Below, piece after piece: positions 28,778 through 35,349 of a stretch of DNA of 64,000 nucleotides; positions within the stretch are counted from its first letter, which is position 1; each line of letters starts with the position of its first letter. Origin of the DNA: an uncultured Candidatus Rokubacteria bacterium (GTDB lineage: Bacteria > Methylomirabilota > Methylomirabilia > Rokubacteriales > DASRDR01); NCBI GenBank assembly GCA_963826115.1, contig CAWGVS010000005.1:288001-352000 (forward strand), in the 5' to 3' direction. A model generated the notes under the pieces. It made no database searches and was not told the DNA's origin. It saw nothing but the letters and a program-made list of their open reading frames with translations. A program made the translations under genes and the position numbers.

Positions 28778-29024
28778 CCCTGGGCCGGGGGATCCTTCCC
28801 GCTCGGGGTCCGCCGGACGTTCCGGTGGGGCCGGCCGGGAGGTCGAATACTCCGTGAGATTCACGCGTTTCGGTCCATCCGACGGCGGCCGTCGGGGCCT
28901 GATCGACGCCTGCCCGGGCCCTCGCGCCGGGTGGCCGGGGCCGGATCGGCTACTATCGATGCATGGAGGCAGGTCGACCCCGCGGGGGTGCCTTGCGCGG
29001 GCCGCTCGACTCGGGGCGCGAGCC

Positions 29025-30530
29025 GTGACGCCCCCGTCGCGGTCGGAGGAGCGCGCCGCCCTCCAGCAGGAGCTCCGCGAGCTCCGCACCGTCAACGAGC
29101 TCATCCGGACGCTCACCTCGACGCTCGAGCTCCCGGAGATCCTCCGAATCGTCCTCGACCGGCTGAAGAACCTGACCCAGGCTGAGGCGCTGTCGCTGAT
29201 GCTGTACGACGCGGAGCGCGACGAGCTGGTGTTCGCCGCGACCGAAACGCTCCGCGAGAACGCGGCGGTCGGCCTTCGCCTGCCGCCGTCGCGGAGCCTT
29301 GCCAGCTGGGTGGCGCGGAGCGGCGAGAGCGCCATCGTCAACGACGTGGAGCACGACCCGCGCTTCTACCCCGAGATCGACCGGCTCACTCGCTTCACCA
29401 CGCGCAACCTCCTGGCGGTGCCGATCCTCCGGCAGGGCCGCCTGATCGGCGTCCTCGAGGTCGCCAACCGCTACGGTGGCATCGCCTTCGAGGAGGACGA
29501 CCGATTGCACCTCGAAGGGCTCGCGCGGGAGGTCGGGGAGGCGTGCGACCCCGACCGGCTCTGCCACGACGCGGACGCGATGAGGGACCTCCTGTCCCGG
29601 GCCGTCCGGACGGCCCCCAGCGAGGCCGCGGCCCTCCTGCTCCTCGATCCGTCCGGACGGGAGCTCGTGTTCCAGGCGTCGCGCGCCATCCAGCCCGGCA
29701 TGATCGACGGCCTCAGGCTGCCCACGACCCGCGGGATCGCGGGGTGGGTCGCGCGGCATCGCGAGGCTGTCCGGCTGGACGACGTTGCCGCCGATCCGCG
29801 GCATTTCGCGGGCGTCGGCACCCAGACGGGCCTCGTGCCGCGGACGATGATCTGCGTGCCGATGGTCAGCAAGGGCGAGCTGCGCGGCGTGATCCAGGTG
29901 ATCAACAAGGTCGACAACTCGACGTTCACGGAGACGGAGCTCGGCGTCGCCCAGACGCTCGCCGACCACGCGGCGATCGCGATCGAGAACGCGTCGCTCT
30001 ACCGACAGGCGTACCTGGCGTCGATCACGGACGACCTGACCGGGCTCGGCAACACCCGGCACTTCCATCGGAGCCTCGCGGAGGTCATGGCGCGCGCCCG
30101 GTCGGTCTCGCTCGCCGTGCTCGACCTCGACAACTTCAAGGCGGTGGTCGACCGGTGGGGACATCTCGCGGGCTCTCGGGCGATTGCGCAGATCGGCCGC
30201 ACGATCGGCGCGCTGGTCCGGCCCGGCGACGTCGCGGCCCGCTTCGGCGGCGACGAGTTCGTGATCGTCCTCCCCGAGACGGACGTCGCCGAGGCGCAGC
30301 GGGTCGCGGAGTCGATCCGCAAGGCCATCGAGGCTTGCCAGACCCTCGAGGGGGAGGACGTCGATCTCTCCCGGGTCACGGCAAGCGTGGGTGTCGCCTC
30401 GTTCCCGGCGCACGCGGCCGACGGCGAGAGCCTGTTCCGGCAGGCGGACGCCGCCATGTACACGGCCAAGCGGCAGGGCAAGAACCGGGTGACGGTCGCC
30501 CCGCCCCCGGAGGCCGCCACCGGGGCCTGA
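29025..30530 (+). CDS. Diguanylate cyclase with two tandem GAF domains
   Basis: Two GAF repeats (...NDVEHDPRF / DDVAADPRHF...), DDLTGLGN, DLDNFK, RPGD I-site, GGDEF; start uncertain. Confidence 0.92.
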   Translation: MTPPSRSEERAALQQELRELRTVNELIRTLTSTLELPEILRIVLDRLKNLTQAEALSLMLYDAERDELVFAATETLRENAAVGLRLPPSRSLASWVARSGESAIVNDVEHDPRFYPEIDRLTRFTTRNLLAVPILRQGRLIGVLEVANRYGGIAFEEDDRLHLEGLAREVGEACDPDRLCHDADAMRDLLSRAVRTAPSEAAALLLLDPSGRELVFQASRAIQPGMIDGLRLPTTRGIAGWVARHREAVRLDDVAADPRHFAGVGTQTGLVPRTMICVPMVSKGELRGVIQVINKVDNSTFTETELGVAQTLADHAAIAIENASLYRQAYLASITDDLTGLGNTRHFHRSLAEVMARARSVSLAVLDLDNFKAVVDRWGHLAGSRAIAQIGRTIGALVRPGDVAARFGGDEFVIVLPETDVAEAQRVAESIRKAIEACQTLEGEDVDLSRVTASVGVASFPAHAADGESLFRQADAAMYTAKRQGKNRVTVAPPPEAATGA

Positions 30531-30570
30531 GACCTCCGGCCACCTCACCCGGCCGCGCCGGGGCAGACCG

Positions 30571-30732
30571 TCAGCCGCCGTGATCGTGGGGCTGGGGCTG
30601 CGCCTGTCCGAGGGTCACCCTGAGGCAGCCGTAGCAGACCGGCGCCGCGCAGTCCGGGCTCTCGCAGAGCTCGCAGCACTCGACCTCGTCCCCGCACTCC
30701 GAGCACCGGTAGGCGAGGGGGCGATCGCTCAC
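30571..30732 (-). CDS. 53-aa Cys-rich mini-protein (8 Cys, C-terminal HDHGG)
   Basis: GGAGG SD, GTG 30732 overlapping the upstream stop (GTGA); MSDRPLAYRCSECGDEVECCELCESPDCAAPVCYGCLRVTLGQAQPQPHDHGG*. Confidence 0.75.
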   Translation of the reverse strand: MSDRPLAYRCSECGDEVECCELCESPDCAAPVCYGCLRVTLGQAQPQPHDHGG

Positions 30733-31457
30733 AACTTTCCTCCCGAGCCGGGCTCCGCGGGCCGCGCGTCCCCGAGCTCCCGCGCGACCCTGACCGCGTC
30801 CTGGCGGCGGAGCAGGCCGACCAGCCTCCCGTCCGACGTCGTGATCGGCACGCTCGTCAGGTCGTGCTCGGCCATGACTCTCGCCATCTCCTCGATCGAG
30901 ACGAACGGGCGGAACGTGCTGGGTCCCGGACGCATGGCGCGCTCGATCCGGAGGTCCGGCGCCGCTTCGAGCTCCGCGGCCCGCAGCAACCCCAGGACGA
31001 TCCGCTGGGCGTTGATCGCCACGCAGGCGTCCCAGCCGGCCGCACGCACCCGGGCGCGCACCTCGCCCAGCCGCTCGTCGAGCGAGCAGGTCGGGACGTC
31101 CGCTCGAGCCACGGTTCCCGCGCGAGGGCGGGCGGCATTGGCGCCCTCCGAGGGCAGTCCCGCCGCCAGCCAGTCGAGCTTGCCGGCGTCGTAGTCGTAG
31201 ACCCGCGTGAATCCGAAGCGCTCGAGCCGCCACGCGGCCCGTGAGCTGAGGTCTCAGGCCGAGTCCCAGCAGTAGACGACGATCGGTCGGCCGGGATCGA
31301 GCGCCTGGCGGGCCTCGGCCTCGAGCTTGCGAAGCGGCAGGCTCATGGCCCCTGGCAGATGGTCCTCTTCGTATTCCTTGGCGGGGAGGACCTCCACGAT
31401 CTGCGCGCCGGCGCGCATGAGCCGCCGGACCTCTTCTCGACCGATCGACTCCGGCAT
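30729..31457 (-). CDS. Rhodanese-CBS fusion protein with in-frame UGA (candidate selenocysteine at residue 68)
   Basis: One frame of 243 codons; HLPGA, VVYCWDSA-UGA-DLSSRAAWRLERFGFTRVYDYDAGKLDW completes the rhodanese fold, followed by a CBS pair; GGAGG SD. Confidence 0.8.
31220..31246 (-). promoter_or_regulatory. Bacterial SECIS-like stem-loop 3' of the UGA
   Basis: mRNA GCUC-AC-GGGCCGC-GUG-GCGGCUC-GAGC, from +8 to +34 after UGA; apical loop starts with GU at +21. Confidence 0.6.
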
Positions 31458-31521
31458 GATGGTCGCCTCCTCCCAGACGCGCTGGGTCGCTCGAGGAGCC
31501 TTGCCGCTCAGCGTAGCCCGG

Positions 31522-32974
31522 TCAGCGCCACTCGGGGTAGGTCTGGGGCGCGAGCTCGTCCGCGCCCCGGCCCGCCCAGTCGAACTCGCGCATCCGGGGC
31601 CACATGCGCTCGCCGCCGGCCTGGAGCGCGTCGAGGATCGCGCGCTCGTCGGCGGCCAGGACGCGGCCGCCGTCCACCACGACGCGCCCGTCGACCCAGA
31701 CGCGGTCCACGTCCTCGGCGGTCGCGTTGTAGACGAGGTTCTTCACCGGGTCGCGGAGCGGCGTCATGCCGAAGGAGCGGCCCTTCCAGAGGACCAGGTC
31801 GGCCCTCGCGCCCGGCGGCGATGCGGCCGAGGTCGTCCCGGCCCAGCGCGCGCGCCCCGCCGAGGGTGGCCGCGTCGAAGACGTGGGCCGCGGTCGTGGC
31901 CTGGGTGTTGCGCTCCATCGTCTTCGACAGGACCGCCGCCCAGCGCATCGCCTCGATCACGCTCTGCGGGTTGGTGTCGGTCCCGAGCGACATGTTCACG
32001 CCGGCGTCGCGATAGCGAGCGAAGGACTCCATCGGCACGCCGCGGCGCGCGAAGACCCAGACGGCGTGGGCCACGCTGCAGCCCGCGTCCCCCATGATCC
32101 GGATGTCGCCGGCGGGGTGGTTCGCCCAGGACGAGCCCCCGACGATGATCGCGTGGCCGAGGATCGTGCTGGGGCCGAGGAAGCCCAGCTCGGCGAGCCA
32201 GGCGACCGGCGTCTTTCCGTGGCGCTGCAGCATCTCCTGGAACTCGATCACCGACTGGGAGGCGTGGAGCGTGATCGGGCAGCGCCGCTCGTCGGCGGCC
32301 TGCCTGGCCGCGCGCAGGAGCTCGGGCGTGCACGTGTCCACCTGGGCCGGGGCGAGGCAGCAGCGGACGAGCCCGCCGTGAGCCCCGTCCAGACGATCGT
32401 GGAGGGCGAGCGCGCGGGCGAGGCCCTGGCGGCCGCGCTCCTCGTCCCACTCCCAGTGGACCCGCCGGCCGTCCCGCGTGAGCCAGCGCCCGGAGCGGAA
32501 CGAGAGGCCGAAGTAGACGCGGAGGCCGTAGTGGCCCGCGCGCTCGGCGACGTGCTCGCCGAGCTGGCCGATCTCCAGCACGGTGGTGACGCCGCCCCGC
32601 AGCAGCTCGGCCATCGAGAAGTCGACGCACGCGCGGCTCGCCGCGTCGTCCTGCGCCCCGTCGCGCACCGGCAGGGTCTCGAAGAGGCCCGAGTAGTAGA
32701 ACTGGGCCCGCCCGGTGTCCTCGATGAAGGAGCGGTCGAGCGGGGACCCCGCGATGTGGGCGTGCGTGGAGATGAGCCCCGGGGTGAGGACGCGGTCCGG
32801 CGCGTCGACCGTCTCGTCGACGGGGCCCGTGAGCCGCGCGTCCCCGCGGGGCCCGACGTGCGCGACGCGGCCGCCCTCGAGCAGGACCGCCCCGTCCCGC
32901 AGGAGGCGGTGGCCCTGGCCGTCGAAGGCGATGACGTGACCGGCGCGGATCAGGGTGCGGCGCGGAGTGCTCAT
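31522..32974 (-). pseudogene. Amidohydrolase (chlorohydrolase/MTA-SAH deaminase-like) with a 1-nt frameshift near 31818
   Basis: PGLISTHAH, LHASQS, LGTD motifs; LGRIA continues as PGARADLVLWKG...MTPLRDPVKNLVY in another frame; may be a sequencing error. Confidence 0.8.
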
Positions 32975-35349
32975 GGGAGGTCTCCCTGGTCGAAGAGGCC
33001 CAGCTGGCGTCCCTCGGGCCGGTGGATCCCGGCGATCGTGTCGAAGTCGGGGGCGCCCAGGAAGTGAAGCAGCGCGTCGGCAATGGGCCGGAGCTGCTGC
33101 GTGACGTAGTGCTCGTAGTCGGGCGGCGCGGTCGTCTCGCCGACGGCCTCGGGGCCCGCGGTGGTGACGACGTAGGTGACGATGCGGCCGGGCCCGCCCG
33201 CCTGCTTCCGCGCGGCCTTCACGTGGGGCGGCGTGGTCTTCGTGTAGGACTCGAGCGGCTTCCGGATCGCCTTCCGGTAGGCGAGCTCGTCGTCGAAGCG
33301 CCCGGCCCGGAGCTCGGCGACGAAGTCGCGGACGAACGGCTCGACCGGCTCGTCGTGGAACGCGCGCTGGAGGAGCTCCCGCTGGAAGCGCCGCGCGACG
33401 CCGCTCCAGTCCCGGCGCACGGCCTCCAGGCCCACCAGCTCGAGCGTCTCGCCCCGGGGCCCGTCGACCAGCCCCGCGTAGCGCTTCTTGCTGCCCGTCG
33501 CGCCGCCGCGGACCTCGGGCATCCAGAAGCGGACGTAGACCTTCTCGAACTCGAGCTCGAGCCAGCTCCGGACGCCGAACTCGGCGCGGAGCGAATCGGC
33601 GACATGGGCGCCGATGGTTTCGCGGAGGCTCTCTGCGCGCTTGACGGCGGCGGCGGGGTTGACCTCGCCCGCGTCGACGAAGAGGGAGTCGGTATCCCCG
33701 TAGATCACGCGGTGGCCCGCCTGCTCGACGGCGGCCGCCGCCAGGCGGATCACGTGCTGGCCGGCCATCGTGATGGCGTTCGCGACGGCGGGCGAGAAGA
33801 GCCGGGAGGCCGAGGCCCCGAGGACCCCGAAGAGCGAGTTCATGAGGATCTTCGTCGCCTGGGCGCCCACGGGGTCGCCCTCGGCGCGGGCGCGAGCCCG
33901 CTCCTCCCAGAGGCGCGCGACCAGGTCGGGGAGGATGCCCGGCTCGTCGGCGCGGAACCGAGCGGGGCTGGGCGTCCGCACGAGCGGCCGGTCGGCCGTC
34001 TCGCGGGCGGGGACGACGTGCGTCAGCGGGTCGATGTTGAACGTCCGGATCAGGCTGGGATACAGACTCTTGAAGTCGAAGACCAGGATGTTCCGGTACA
34101 GGCCCGGGATCGAGTCGAGGACGAGGCCGCCCGCGATCGTCGTCCCCTCGCCGTCCTCGAAGTGGACCGACGGCGCGACGCGCCCGCGCGCCCGGAGCTC
34201 GGCCAGATAGAGCGAGTCCACCGCCGCGATCTGGGCGCCGACCCGGTCGATCTGCATCCCGGTGAGGAGACTCCGACGCACGGTCAGCTCGACGAGCCCC
34301 GTGTGTCGGAGGATCTCCACGACGAGCCGCGCGTCGTTCAGGTTGTACGCGGCGAGCCGCTCGGGGTCGTCTCGCCACGCGGCCTCGATCTCCCGGCCGC
34401 GGTGCTCCGCGGCGAAGAGCTTCCCCTTGCCGAGGATCGCCTGGGCCGCCGTGTCGAGCCGGTAGTCGTCCAGCTTGACGAAGGCGCTCCGGAGGAGCGC
34501 GAGGCCGTCGAGGACCTGCCGCCCCGACAGGATCACCCGCGGATCGCGGGTGAAGCCGAGGTCGCGGCGCACCTCGGCCTCCTCGTCGGTGCGCCCGAGC
34601 GTCAGCCGGAGGCCCGTGCGGCGGGCCACTCGCTGGAGGACCGTGACGTCGAAGTCGCCGATGTTCCAGCCGGTCAGGACATCCGGGTCGGTGGCGCGAA
34701 GGTGCTCGAGAAACGCCTCGACGCATGCGCGCTCGTTCGGCACGAGTGCGCCGGTGGCGCCCTCGGGCAGGCCGGCCAGGGGCCCGATTTCGCCCGGCCG
34801 GACCATCCACACCCGCTCGCCACCATGGCCCGCCACGGCGATCGAGTAGAGAAAGCGGCCGTCCAGGCTCGTCTCGATGTCGAAGGAGAGGACCCGAAGC
34901 GTCGGCACGAAGGTGGCTGGCTCGAGGCGCGGATTCCGGTAGACGCGCCCCACGCCCGGGCGGCGCTCGAACGGCCCGTCGACGGCGAACGCACCGCGGA
35001 TCCCGTAGTCGATGAGGAAGCGGTACGCGAAGCGCACGTCGGCCTCGAAGCACTGCGCGCCGGCTTCCTGAAGGCGCGCGCGAAGCGGCGGCACCTCGCC
35101 GGGGAGGTCGACCTCGACACGGAGGACGGGCTCGTCGGCGAAGGTGAGGTATGGCGTGTCGGCCACGCGCGCGGCGGGGGCCACCCGGCGCAGGGCGTCC
35201 CGATCGGTCGCGCGGACGAAGAAATAGGGGGCAAAGCGGTCGTCGACGACGAGCGCGGCCTCGCCGTTCTCGAGGACGGCGTGGAGGTGGACCTCCGCGC
35301 GCTCGCGGGCGACGCGGTAGGTCGGGGTGAGGAGGAACCCTCGGGTCAG
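32971..35349 (-). CDS. polB: DNA polymerase II (family B)
   Basis: SFDIET exonuclease, FDFKSLYPS, KILMNSLFG, YGDTDS, KKRYAG; the frame stays open and PolB-like (RGFLLTPTYR...PYFFV) upstream of GTG 35184, so the start is uncertain (CTG 35349 or 35373). Confidence 0.92.
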   Translation of the reverse strand: MTRGFLLTPTYRVARERAEVHLHAVLENGEAALVVDDRFAPYFFVRATDRDALRRVAPAARVADTPYLTFADEPVLRVEVDLPGEVPPLRARLQEAGAQCFEADVRFAYRFLIDYGIRGAFAVDGPFERRPGVGRVYRNPRLEPATFVPTLRVLSFDIETSLDGRFLYSIAVAGHGGERVWMVRPGEIGPLAGLPEGATGALVPNERACVEAFLEHLRATDPDVLTGWNIGDFDVTVLQRVARRTGLRLTLGRTDEEAEVRRDLGFTRDPRVILSGRQVLDGLALLRSAFVKLDDYRLDTAAQAILGKGKLFAAEHRGREIEAAWRDDPERLAAYNLNDARLVVEILRHTGLVELTVRRSLLTGMQIDRVGAQIAAVDSLYLAELRARGRVAPSVHFEDGEGTTIAGGLVLDSIPGLYRNILVFDFKSLYPSLIRTFNIDPLTHVVPARETADRPLVRTPSPARFRADEPGILPDLVARLWEERARARAEGDPVGAQATKILMNSLFGVLGASASRLFSPAVANAITMAGQHVIRLAAAAVEQAGHRVIYGDTDSLFVDAGEVNPAAAVKRAESLRETIGAHVADSLRAEFGVRSWLELEFEKVYVRFWMPEVRGGATGSKKRYAGLVDGPRGETLELVGLEAVRRDWSGVARRFQRELLQRAFHDEPVEPFVRDFVAELRAGRFDDELAYRKAIRKPLESYTKTTPPHVKAARKQAGGPGRIVTYVVTTAGPEAVGETTAPPDYEHYVTQQLRPIADALLHFLGAPDFDTIAGIHRPEGRQLGLFDQGDLP

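Follow-up and report, generated by a model that had tools for sequence, protein, structure and literature searches.

A rhodanese–CBS gene with a probable in-frame selenocysteine codon in an uncultured Rokubacteria bacterium

Introduction

Rhodanese-type selenoproteins have been catalogued in five forms: form 1 with a UxxS motif and an exemplar in Geobacter sulfurreducens, forms 2 and 4 with UxxG, form 3 with CxU (NF041203) and form 5, TsoB, with UxxxxU (NF045694), as far as the accessible part of the catalogue extends (PMC13188914). Here we describe a gene from an uncultured Candidatus Rokubacteria bacterium, found in a stretch of 64,000 nucleotides (nt) that we call the window (GenBank assembly GCA_963826115.1, contig CAWGVS010000005.1, positions 288,001 to 352,000), in which a rhodanese domain with an in-frame UGA in its active-site loop is joined to a CBS pair. 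The UGA is very probably a selenocysteine (Sec) codon, and a small open reading frame (ORF) of 53 codons, encoding a cysteine-rich protein, overlaps the end of the gene.

With the five catalogued forms this gene has in common a PF00581 rhodanese domain and a predicted Sec in or beside the active-site loop, judging from the part of the source at hand (PMC13188914). Within the same limits, residues U68-D-L-S71 fit the UxxS pattern of form 1 at the level of motif, and the U-x4-U spacing of TsoB equals the C-x4-U spacing seen here (PMC13188914); S71 is conserved in at least 90% of the family. The protein belongs to neither of the forms for which a model could be scored. Against NF041203 (rhodanese_LYCAU, form 3) it reaches 20.6 bits where the cut-off is 115, and it has no CxU motif; against NF045694 (TsoB) it reaches 23.6 bits where the cut-off is 805, through the rhodanese part only, and it has one Sec and a CBS pair in place of the DsbD fusion. 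No CBS pair is listed for any of the five forms, and the term 'CBS' is absent from the catalogue in its accessible part (PMC13188914).

Nor did a wider search bring such a protein to light. No rhodanese–CBS selenoprotein was found in the literature, where supplements outside the search may list the family; the main texts on BSepDB (PMC13326102) and deep-Sep (PMC12013277) mention neither rhodanese nor CBS, and here too supplements or databases may list it. No NCBIfam model fits the 242-residue protein, and a short-protein search with residues 56-112 gave three unnamed matches. Judging from sequence, we rate the CBS-fused C-x4-U form with its dedicated mini-protein as not among the described rhodanese selenoproteins, the kind itself being known. 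The novelty is thus below that implied by an earlier note on this DNA, since rhodanese selenoproteins had already been catalogued in five forms (accessible part of PMC13188914).

Among solved structures the best rhodanese match is BH2092 of Bacillus halodurans (PDB 3NHV/3O3W; phmmer E 1.4e-9; Foldseek root-mean-square deviation (rmsd) 1.6 A over 107 columns). Its loop is extended in the same way and has the C-x4-C motif (YCWGPAC as against YCWDSAC(U) here), but it is a Cys-only, single-domain protein without a CBS pair; it is a structural-genomics entry, and a literature search for BH2092, 3NHV and 3O3W returned no functional paper. The C-terminal half superposes on the CBS pairs of the MgtE cytosolic domain, AcuB and plant CBSX1/2 (Foldseek E 3.7e-9 to 1e-7, rmsd 2-3 A) at 13-26% identity; none of these is fused to a rhodanese and none carries Sec.

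Results

Two ORFs on the minus strand of the window, 31254..31457 (67 amino acids (aa), with the C-terminus YCWDSA) and 30729..31112 (127 aa), lie in the same frame, and the sole stop between them is the TGA at 31256-31254. Reading through it yields a product of 242 residues that terminates at the TGA at 30731-30729. This read-through product is one gene, and comparison with homologs indicates that its internal UGA is very probably a selenocysteine codon. The window has a G+C content of 72.4%, and the host genome (G000) comprises 6.24 Mb in 12 contigs, with an estimated completeness of 99%. The features of the gene are as follows.

30729..31457, minus strand: rhodanese plus CBS-pair gene, a putative selenoprotein gene of 242 aa, with its ATG at 31457-31455 (read-through translation, Pfam, AlphaFold2, full-length Cys homologs)
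31466..31474, minus strand: Shine-Dalgarno-like GGGAGGAGG, 8 nt ahead of the ATG (seen directly in the sequence)
31143..31457, minus strand: rhodanese domain, about residues 1-105 (Pfam, AlphaFold2; nearest solved rhodanese BH2092, 3NHV)
31254..31256, minus strand: in-frame UGA, the probable Sec68, which is the sixth residue of the loop C63-W-D-S-A-U (column comparison among homologs)
30768..31121, minus strand: CBS pair (Bateman module), about residues 113-230 (Foldseek to the CBS pairs of MgtE, AcuB and CBSX)

The two halves of the rhodanese domain meet across the UGA. Pfam assigns Rhodanese (PF00581) to residues 8-98 (54.3 bits, cut-off 22.2) and CBS (PF00571) to residues 174-225 (40.2 bits, cut-off 24), the latter being the one of two CBS motifs that scores above the cut-off. 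An AlphaFold2 model of the 242-aa protein, built with 56 relatives, shows a whole rhodanese domain followed, after about residue 113, by a complete CBS pair (predicted local distance difference test score (pLDDT) 96.3, predicted template modelling score 0.88); both CBS motifs form one module in the model, which Foldseek matched to CBS pairs. The active site consists of a strand (59-62), a loop (63-69, C-W-D-S-A-U-D) and a helix (70-80). C63 aligns with the loop cysteine of the solved rhodaneses BH2092 (3NHV) and 1YT8 (domain 4, with a two-residue gap), and by this alignment it is the canonical rhodanese cysteine; the loop is lengthened, and the UGA closes it five residues further on. The reading that the earlier note had taken from one sequence, a single gene split by one TGA, with the missing C-terminal half of a rhodanese and a CBS pair beyond it and a Cys63-x4-Sec68 layout, is borne out by the ORF list and translation, by Pfam, AlphaFold2 and Foldseek, and by the comparisons that follow.

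Of 88 reference-genome loci that bear the motif (a subset of the 90 examined, L106 and L112 being left out), 84 have TGA in the Sec column and the other four have TGC; in metagenomes, scanned with Cys forms as seeds, TGA occupies the column in 79 of 80 loci, with TGC in one. The loci with DNA thus come to 163 with TGA and five with TGC. A search of 61 genomes (G000 and 60 relatives) gave 12 strong matches, each with exactly one TGA and all within the genus, in G000 and nine of 14 same-genus genomes, and the TGA column was identical in all ten genus-level loci that were aligned. A scan of one genome per species found 80 loci, labelled Actinomycetota, Dormibacterota, Chloroflexota, Rokubacteria, Gemmatimonadales, Acidobacteria and a Micromonospora isolate. 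That the column holds TGA or Cys, and that independently assembled genomes share the TGA, answers two checks which the earlier note had set out, the first on homologs and the second on assembly error.

The protein is conserved on either side of the TGA. Y62, U/C68, D69, R73, A74, A75, R77 and L78 are invariant in the homolog alignment and D65 is nearly so, D65 and D69 making the active-site loop acidic. Column 68 is Sec or Cys in 88 of 88 loci and C63 is Cys in 87, with Ser in one; because the former is invariant and the latter is not, Sec/Cys68 is probably the indispensable residue. The locus with Ser at position 63 (L111, labelled Acidobacteria) is a Cys form and retains Cys68. Two further cysteines are kept less widely, Cys124 in 80 of 88 loci and Cys145 in 61.

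Among the 120 best database homologs, 31 are full-length and 89 are truncated calls that begin just past the TGA position, 53 of these at a Met two codons beyond it; this bears out the view of the earlier note that the gene escapes standard annotation. At the Sec column the full-length homologs have Cys (21), Trp (8), Arg (1) or Ser (1), and the Cys-form homologs are continuous proteins of 223-243 aa. A quick maximum-likelihood tree with 116 rows shows the Cys forms interspersed with Sec forms; parsimony gives 12 changes, of which at least four are forced by well-supported branches.

In bacteria, the selenocysteine insertion sequence (SECIS) element is a hairpin that lies close to the UGA on its 3' side and has a G near the start of its apical loop. 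A hairpin of this type follows the UGA here.

31223..31241, minus strand: putative SECIS-type hairpin with an 8-bp stem and a GUG triloop (minimum free energy fold; synonymous-site invariance; selD-like spacing)

Its 5' arm lies at 31241-31234, the loop GUG at 31233-31231 and the 3' arm at 31230-31223, with 20 nt from the UGA to the loop. Numbered from the U of the UGA, nt 16-23 pair with nt 27-34 around a triloop at nt 24-26, in which G24 is invariant. Stem and loop fall in codons 73-79 (R-A-A-x-R-L-E), and it is the codon choice there that stands out: all 84 TGA sequences have GCC at codon 74, GCG at 75 and CGG at 77, and codon 78 is CTC in 81 and CTT in three. Among 70 comparable columns, that is, well-conserved amino acids with four- or six-fold degenerate codons, these four (74, 75, 77 and 78) are the only ones with a synonymous entropy below 0.3 bit; in the remaining 66 it is 1.03 bit or more, with a median of 1.5. 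The loop opens with an unpaired G, which is the third base of codon 75 and is likewise invariant. In the 82 distinct sequences that carry TGA, 95.1% of stem cells are paired, and the changes observed in the stem stay compatible with pairing (A-U/G-U at one pair, G-C/G-U at another). The hairpin codons deviate in four of the five Cys forms with DNA, as against one of 163 TGA forms, a metagenome sequence whose GCT makes a U-G wobble. From this conservation the hairpin is very probably a SECIS element for SelB, still to be called putative. A scan of 30400-31700 against Rfam (E up to 1) gave no family.

The hairpin was described in the earlier note from the window sequence. The stem, the GUG loop and the 20-nt spacing stand as described and are conserved in TGA-bearing homologs through codons 74, 75, 77 and 78; an outer GCUC/GAGC extension does not, being present in the window and in one other locus (L016) and not in the family consensus, which keeps a core of 7-8 bp, and the fold energy alone lies within chance. 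The significance of the hairpin comes from comparison with relatives and not from the single sequence.

Machinery for Sec insertion, which the earlier note had proposed to look for, is complete in the host genome. Profile searches of G000 recovered selB over the full model length (347.8 bits, cut-off 242.25), selA adjoining it (576.5 bits, cut-off 267.9), a tRNA-Sec near both (76.9 bits; tRNA-SeC with anticodon tca by ARAGORN) and selD (393.2 bits), so that the genome carries a full selA, selB, selC, selD set. The selD gene itself has one in-frame TGA, and its hairpin has the same layout as that of the rhodanese–CBS gene, with a stem from nt 16 and a G-first triloop from nt 24. It lies at G000:C5:561687-562604 (L011) and is a selenoprotein gene with the motif HGAG-U-ACK.

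The same genome has two further rhodanese-type Sec genes, at C5:920483-920980 (L116:184-681) and C6:1155961-1156425 (L117:262-726). In both, the loop of a rhodanese domain contains an in-frame TGA (motifs LY-U-AC and LYCS-U, respectively) with a hairpin downstream, and neither has a CBS pair. The nearest model for both is NF041203, at 51.6 and 84.9 bits, under the cut-off of 115. By eye, their hydrophobic N-termini resemble a signal peptide in the C5 gene and a membrane segment in the C6 gene, and one-TGA matches like these two genes recur in same-genus genomes.

Directly downstream, a small ORF shares four nucleotides with the rhodanese–CBS gene.

30571..30732, minus strand: 53-aa Cys7-His2 ORF, whose GTG start overlaps the TGA stop of the putative selenoprotein gene (GTGA) (alignment of 22 such ORFs)

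Seven Cys and two His never vary among the 22 aligned ORFs, which carry Gly-Gly at the C-terminus and follow the pattern CxxC-x6-CxxC-x4-C-x4-CxxC ... PHxHGG; in L209-L211 the small ORF lacks the PHxHGG tail and has a different end. The ORF lies downstream of 22 of the 88 reference loci, with the 4-nt overlap in 16, and of 41 of the 68 metagenome loci with at least 200 nt of flank, with the overlap in 40. It was found in none of the 60 relatives of G000 that were searched and behind none of the five Cys-form loci, L118 included. A reverse search, in a sample of 151 genomes from the class to which one carrier belongs, found 12 with one copy each, and all 11 determinable copies in that other class sit directly behind a TGA-type rhodanese–CBS gene. 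Across the loci examined, the small ORF occurs solely behind TGA-type genes of this kind.

The small protein has no Pfam or NCBIfam family. Its matches comprise 72 database clusters, all of which lack a Pfam domain, and the named ones are 'hypothetical protein', except for two labelled McsA; matches in the ESM Atlas are to unnamed or 'hypothetical' clusters only. Its structural model is of moderate confidence (pLDDT 81.2) and has no significant fold match in the PDB (best E 1.7), the weak top rows being two-zinc fingers.

Other genes nearby were noted. Upstream, at about 31522-32977 on the minus strand, lies an amidohydrolase of the chlorohydrolase family (NF004801, 328.5 bits over the N-terminal 386 aa), the last 95 or so residues of which are in another frame, with the change near 31800-31830; either the gene is a pseudogene with a frameshift or the assembly has an indel error here. 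Beyond it, at 32971-35184 on the minus strand, a 737-aa ORF with a YGDTDS motif resembles, by eye, a family-B DNA polymerase. On the other side, a convergent gene on the plus strand (28854-30530) encodes a GAF-GAF-GGDEF diguanylate cyclase (Pfam GGDEF 139 bits, GAF 129 bits) and is not conserved beside the rhodanese–CBS gene in other loci.

Discussion

Taken as a whole, we consider it highly likely that this is one gene whose UGA is read as Sec through SelB and the hairpin, giving a rhodanese with a C63/U68 loop and a CBS pair, coupled to the small protein. SelB carrying Sec-tRNA(Sec) would be recruited by an 8-bp hairpin with a G-first triloop that begins 13 nt 3' of the UGA, within the coding sequence. 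The product would be a 242-aa cytoplasmic protein with an active-site loop some two residues longer than usual and with Sec68 at the N-terminus of the helix that follows the loop.

Several observations weigh against this reading. The eight Trp-column homologs (P0014, P0015, P0018, P0020, P0023, P0079, P0081 and P0068), together with the one Arg and one Ser, are the first: if the codon in the Trp homologs is a real TGG, the column tolerates a non-redox residue. We think that they are probably TGA codons rendered as Trp by gene callers using another code. Seven of them adjoin Sec forms in the tree, from which P0068 (ending at 170 aa) was left out, a placement that is consistent with, and no proof of, TGA having been translated as Trp. 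The Cys form L118 retains the canonical hairpin codons, which shows that the hairpin does not depend strictly on TGA; this would be explained by a recent change from TGA to TGC. No stem pair has both of its bases altered, and the observed values are reached in every one of 500 shuffles; as the stem scarcely varies, the covariation test supports neither side. The fold energy is ordinary for DNA of 72% G+C (z = -0.62; 55 of 200 shuffles fold as well or better) and was dropped as support for a SECIS element. Without covariation and with an ordinary energy, the argument from RNA is carried solely by the invariance of synonymous sites. No RNA run was found to contain the stretch. Two independent contigs span the codon, with no difference there among those listed, and were not counted as evidence. 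On function, the acidic loop (D65, D69) sits poorly with the classic thiosulfate sulfurtransferases, and no gene cluster besides the small ORF occurs in more than 6 of the 88 loci.

Best placed among the alternatives, and still improbable in our view, is that the UGA is read through as something other than Sec, by a near-cognate Trp or Cys tRNA or under a reassigned code, and that the hairpin is a stimulator of read-through or a by-product of coding. This could draw on the Trp homologs, on the stem without covariation and on the one Cys form that keeps the hairpin, but it has to be set against the complete Sec system of the genome, the fact that the alternative residue is Cys, the classic partner of Sec, in all five non-TGA loci with DNA, and a hairpin that matches the selD SECIS in spacing and loop G. 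As to the code, reassignment of TGA is ruled out: the rhodanese–CBS gene, selD and the other rhodanese genes all terminate in TGA.

More improbable again is a true stop, with a 67-aa rhodanese fragment and a separate CBS protein made from an internal start. The truncated database entries are annotated in just this way (89 of 120, with the 53 that start at the Met past the TGA), and in the window a GTG at 31112 opens the 127-aa ORF. Such a split, however, would sever the modelled rhodanese fold between its central strand and loop and the next helix; residues 69-115 are conserved in the family yet have no start codon before 31112 in the window; the Cys-form homologs run on without a break; and the internal starts vary by lineage, as artefacts of gene calling would. 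That the TGA arose by nonsense mutation or by an error of assembly, in a pseudogene or in a misassembled intact Cys or Trp gene, is scarcely credible, since, for all that the frameshifted amidohydrolase next door allows the assembly to hold errors or real pseudogenes and that differences on independent contigs are only partly listed, 84 of 88 loci, from genomes that were assembled separately and belong to several phyla, have this TGA in the same column, as do 79 of 80 metagenome loci, the protein is conserved downstream of it and a dedicated RNA constraint follows it.

Returning to the selenoprotein reading, C63 and U68 would act as a redox or sulfane-carrying pair, through a selenenylsulfide or an Se-S-S intermediate. 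U68 would be the key nucleophile and the substrates would be reactive sulfur, thiols or persulfides; the CBS pair probably modulates activity by binding a ligand. Rhodaneses that act as thiosulfate sulfurtransferases have cationic active-site loops; given the acidic loop here, classic sulfurtransferase chemistry is not the safest guess, and going by the sequence we favour a redox or sulfane pair over classical thiosulfate:cyanide transfer. The idea of an energy-sensing transferase with an adenylate-binding CBS module, put forward in the earlier note, has as its sole basis the fold likeness to nucleotide-binding CBS pairs (MgtE, AcuB, CBSX), by analogy with which adenylate regulation is plausible.

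From its arrangement and conservation, the 53-aa protein, with what looks like a Cys7-His2 metal knuckle, is probably a direct partner or substrate of the selenoprotein. Whether the two make up a dedicated and hitherto undescribed selenium-dependent relay of two components is a more doubtful matter, which we raise tentatively. In such a relay the mini-protein, as a two-metal knuckle with a flexible Gly-Gly tail, might be the acceptor or donor of redox equivalents, sulfur or metal for the C-x4-U loop, gated by binding of a cellular ligand to the CBS pair.

Conclusions

The family is common in soil bacteria and is systematically annotated as two pieces; the 89 fragments among the 120 best homologs carry labels such as 'CBS domain protein' or 'MgtE', which hide the selenoprotein. 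To our knowledge, the use of selenocysteine in the phyla that carry the family has received little attention so far. The majority of Sec forms, at 163 loci with DNA as against five, argues for a real catalytic advantage of selenium at this loop position, and the rhodanese scaffold offers a tractable setting for Cys-x4-Sec chemistry. The exclusive, translationally coupled mini-protein provides a testable handle on the function of a C-x4-C/U rhodanese subfamily of which BH2092 is the only solved member. If the relay is real, it would be a new functional module and not merely a Sec variant of a sulfurtransferase, and one that would be widespread in soil Actinomycetota, Dormibacterota, Chloroflexota and Rokubacteria-type bacteria.

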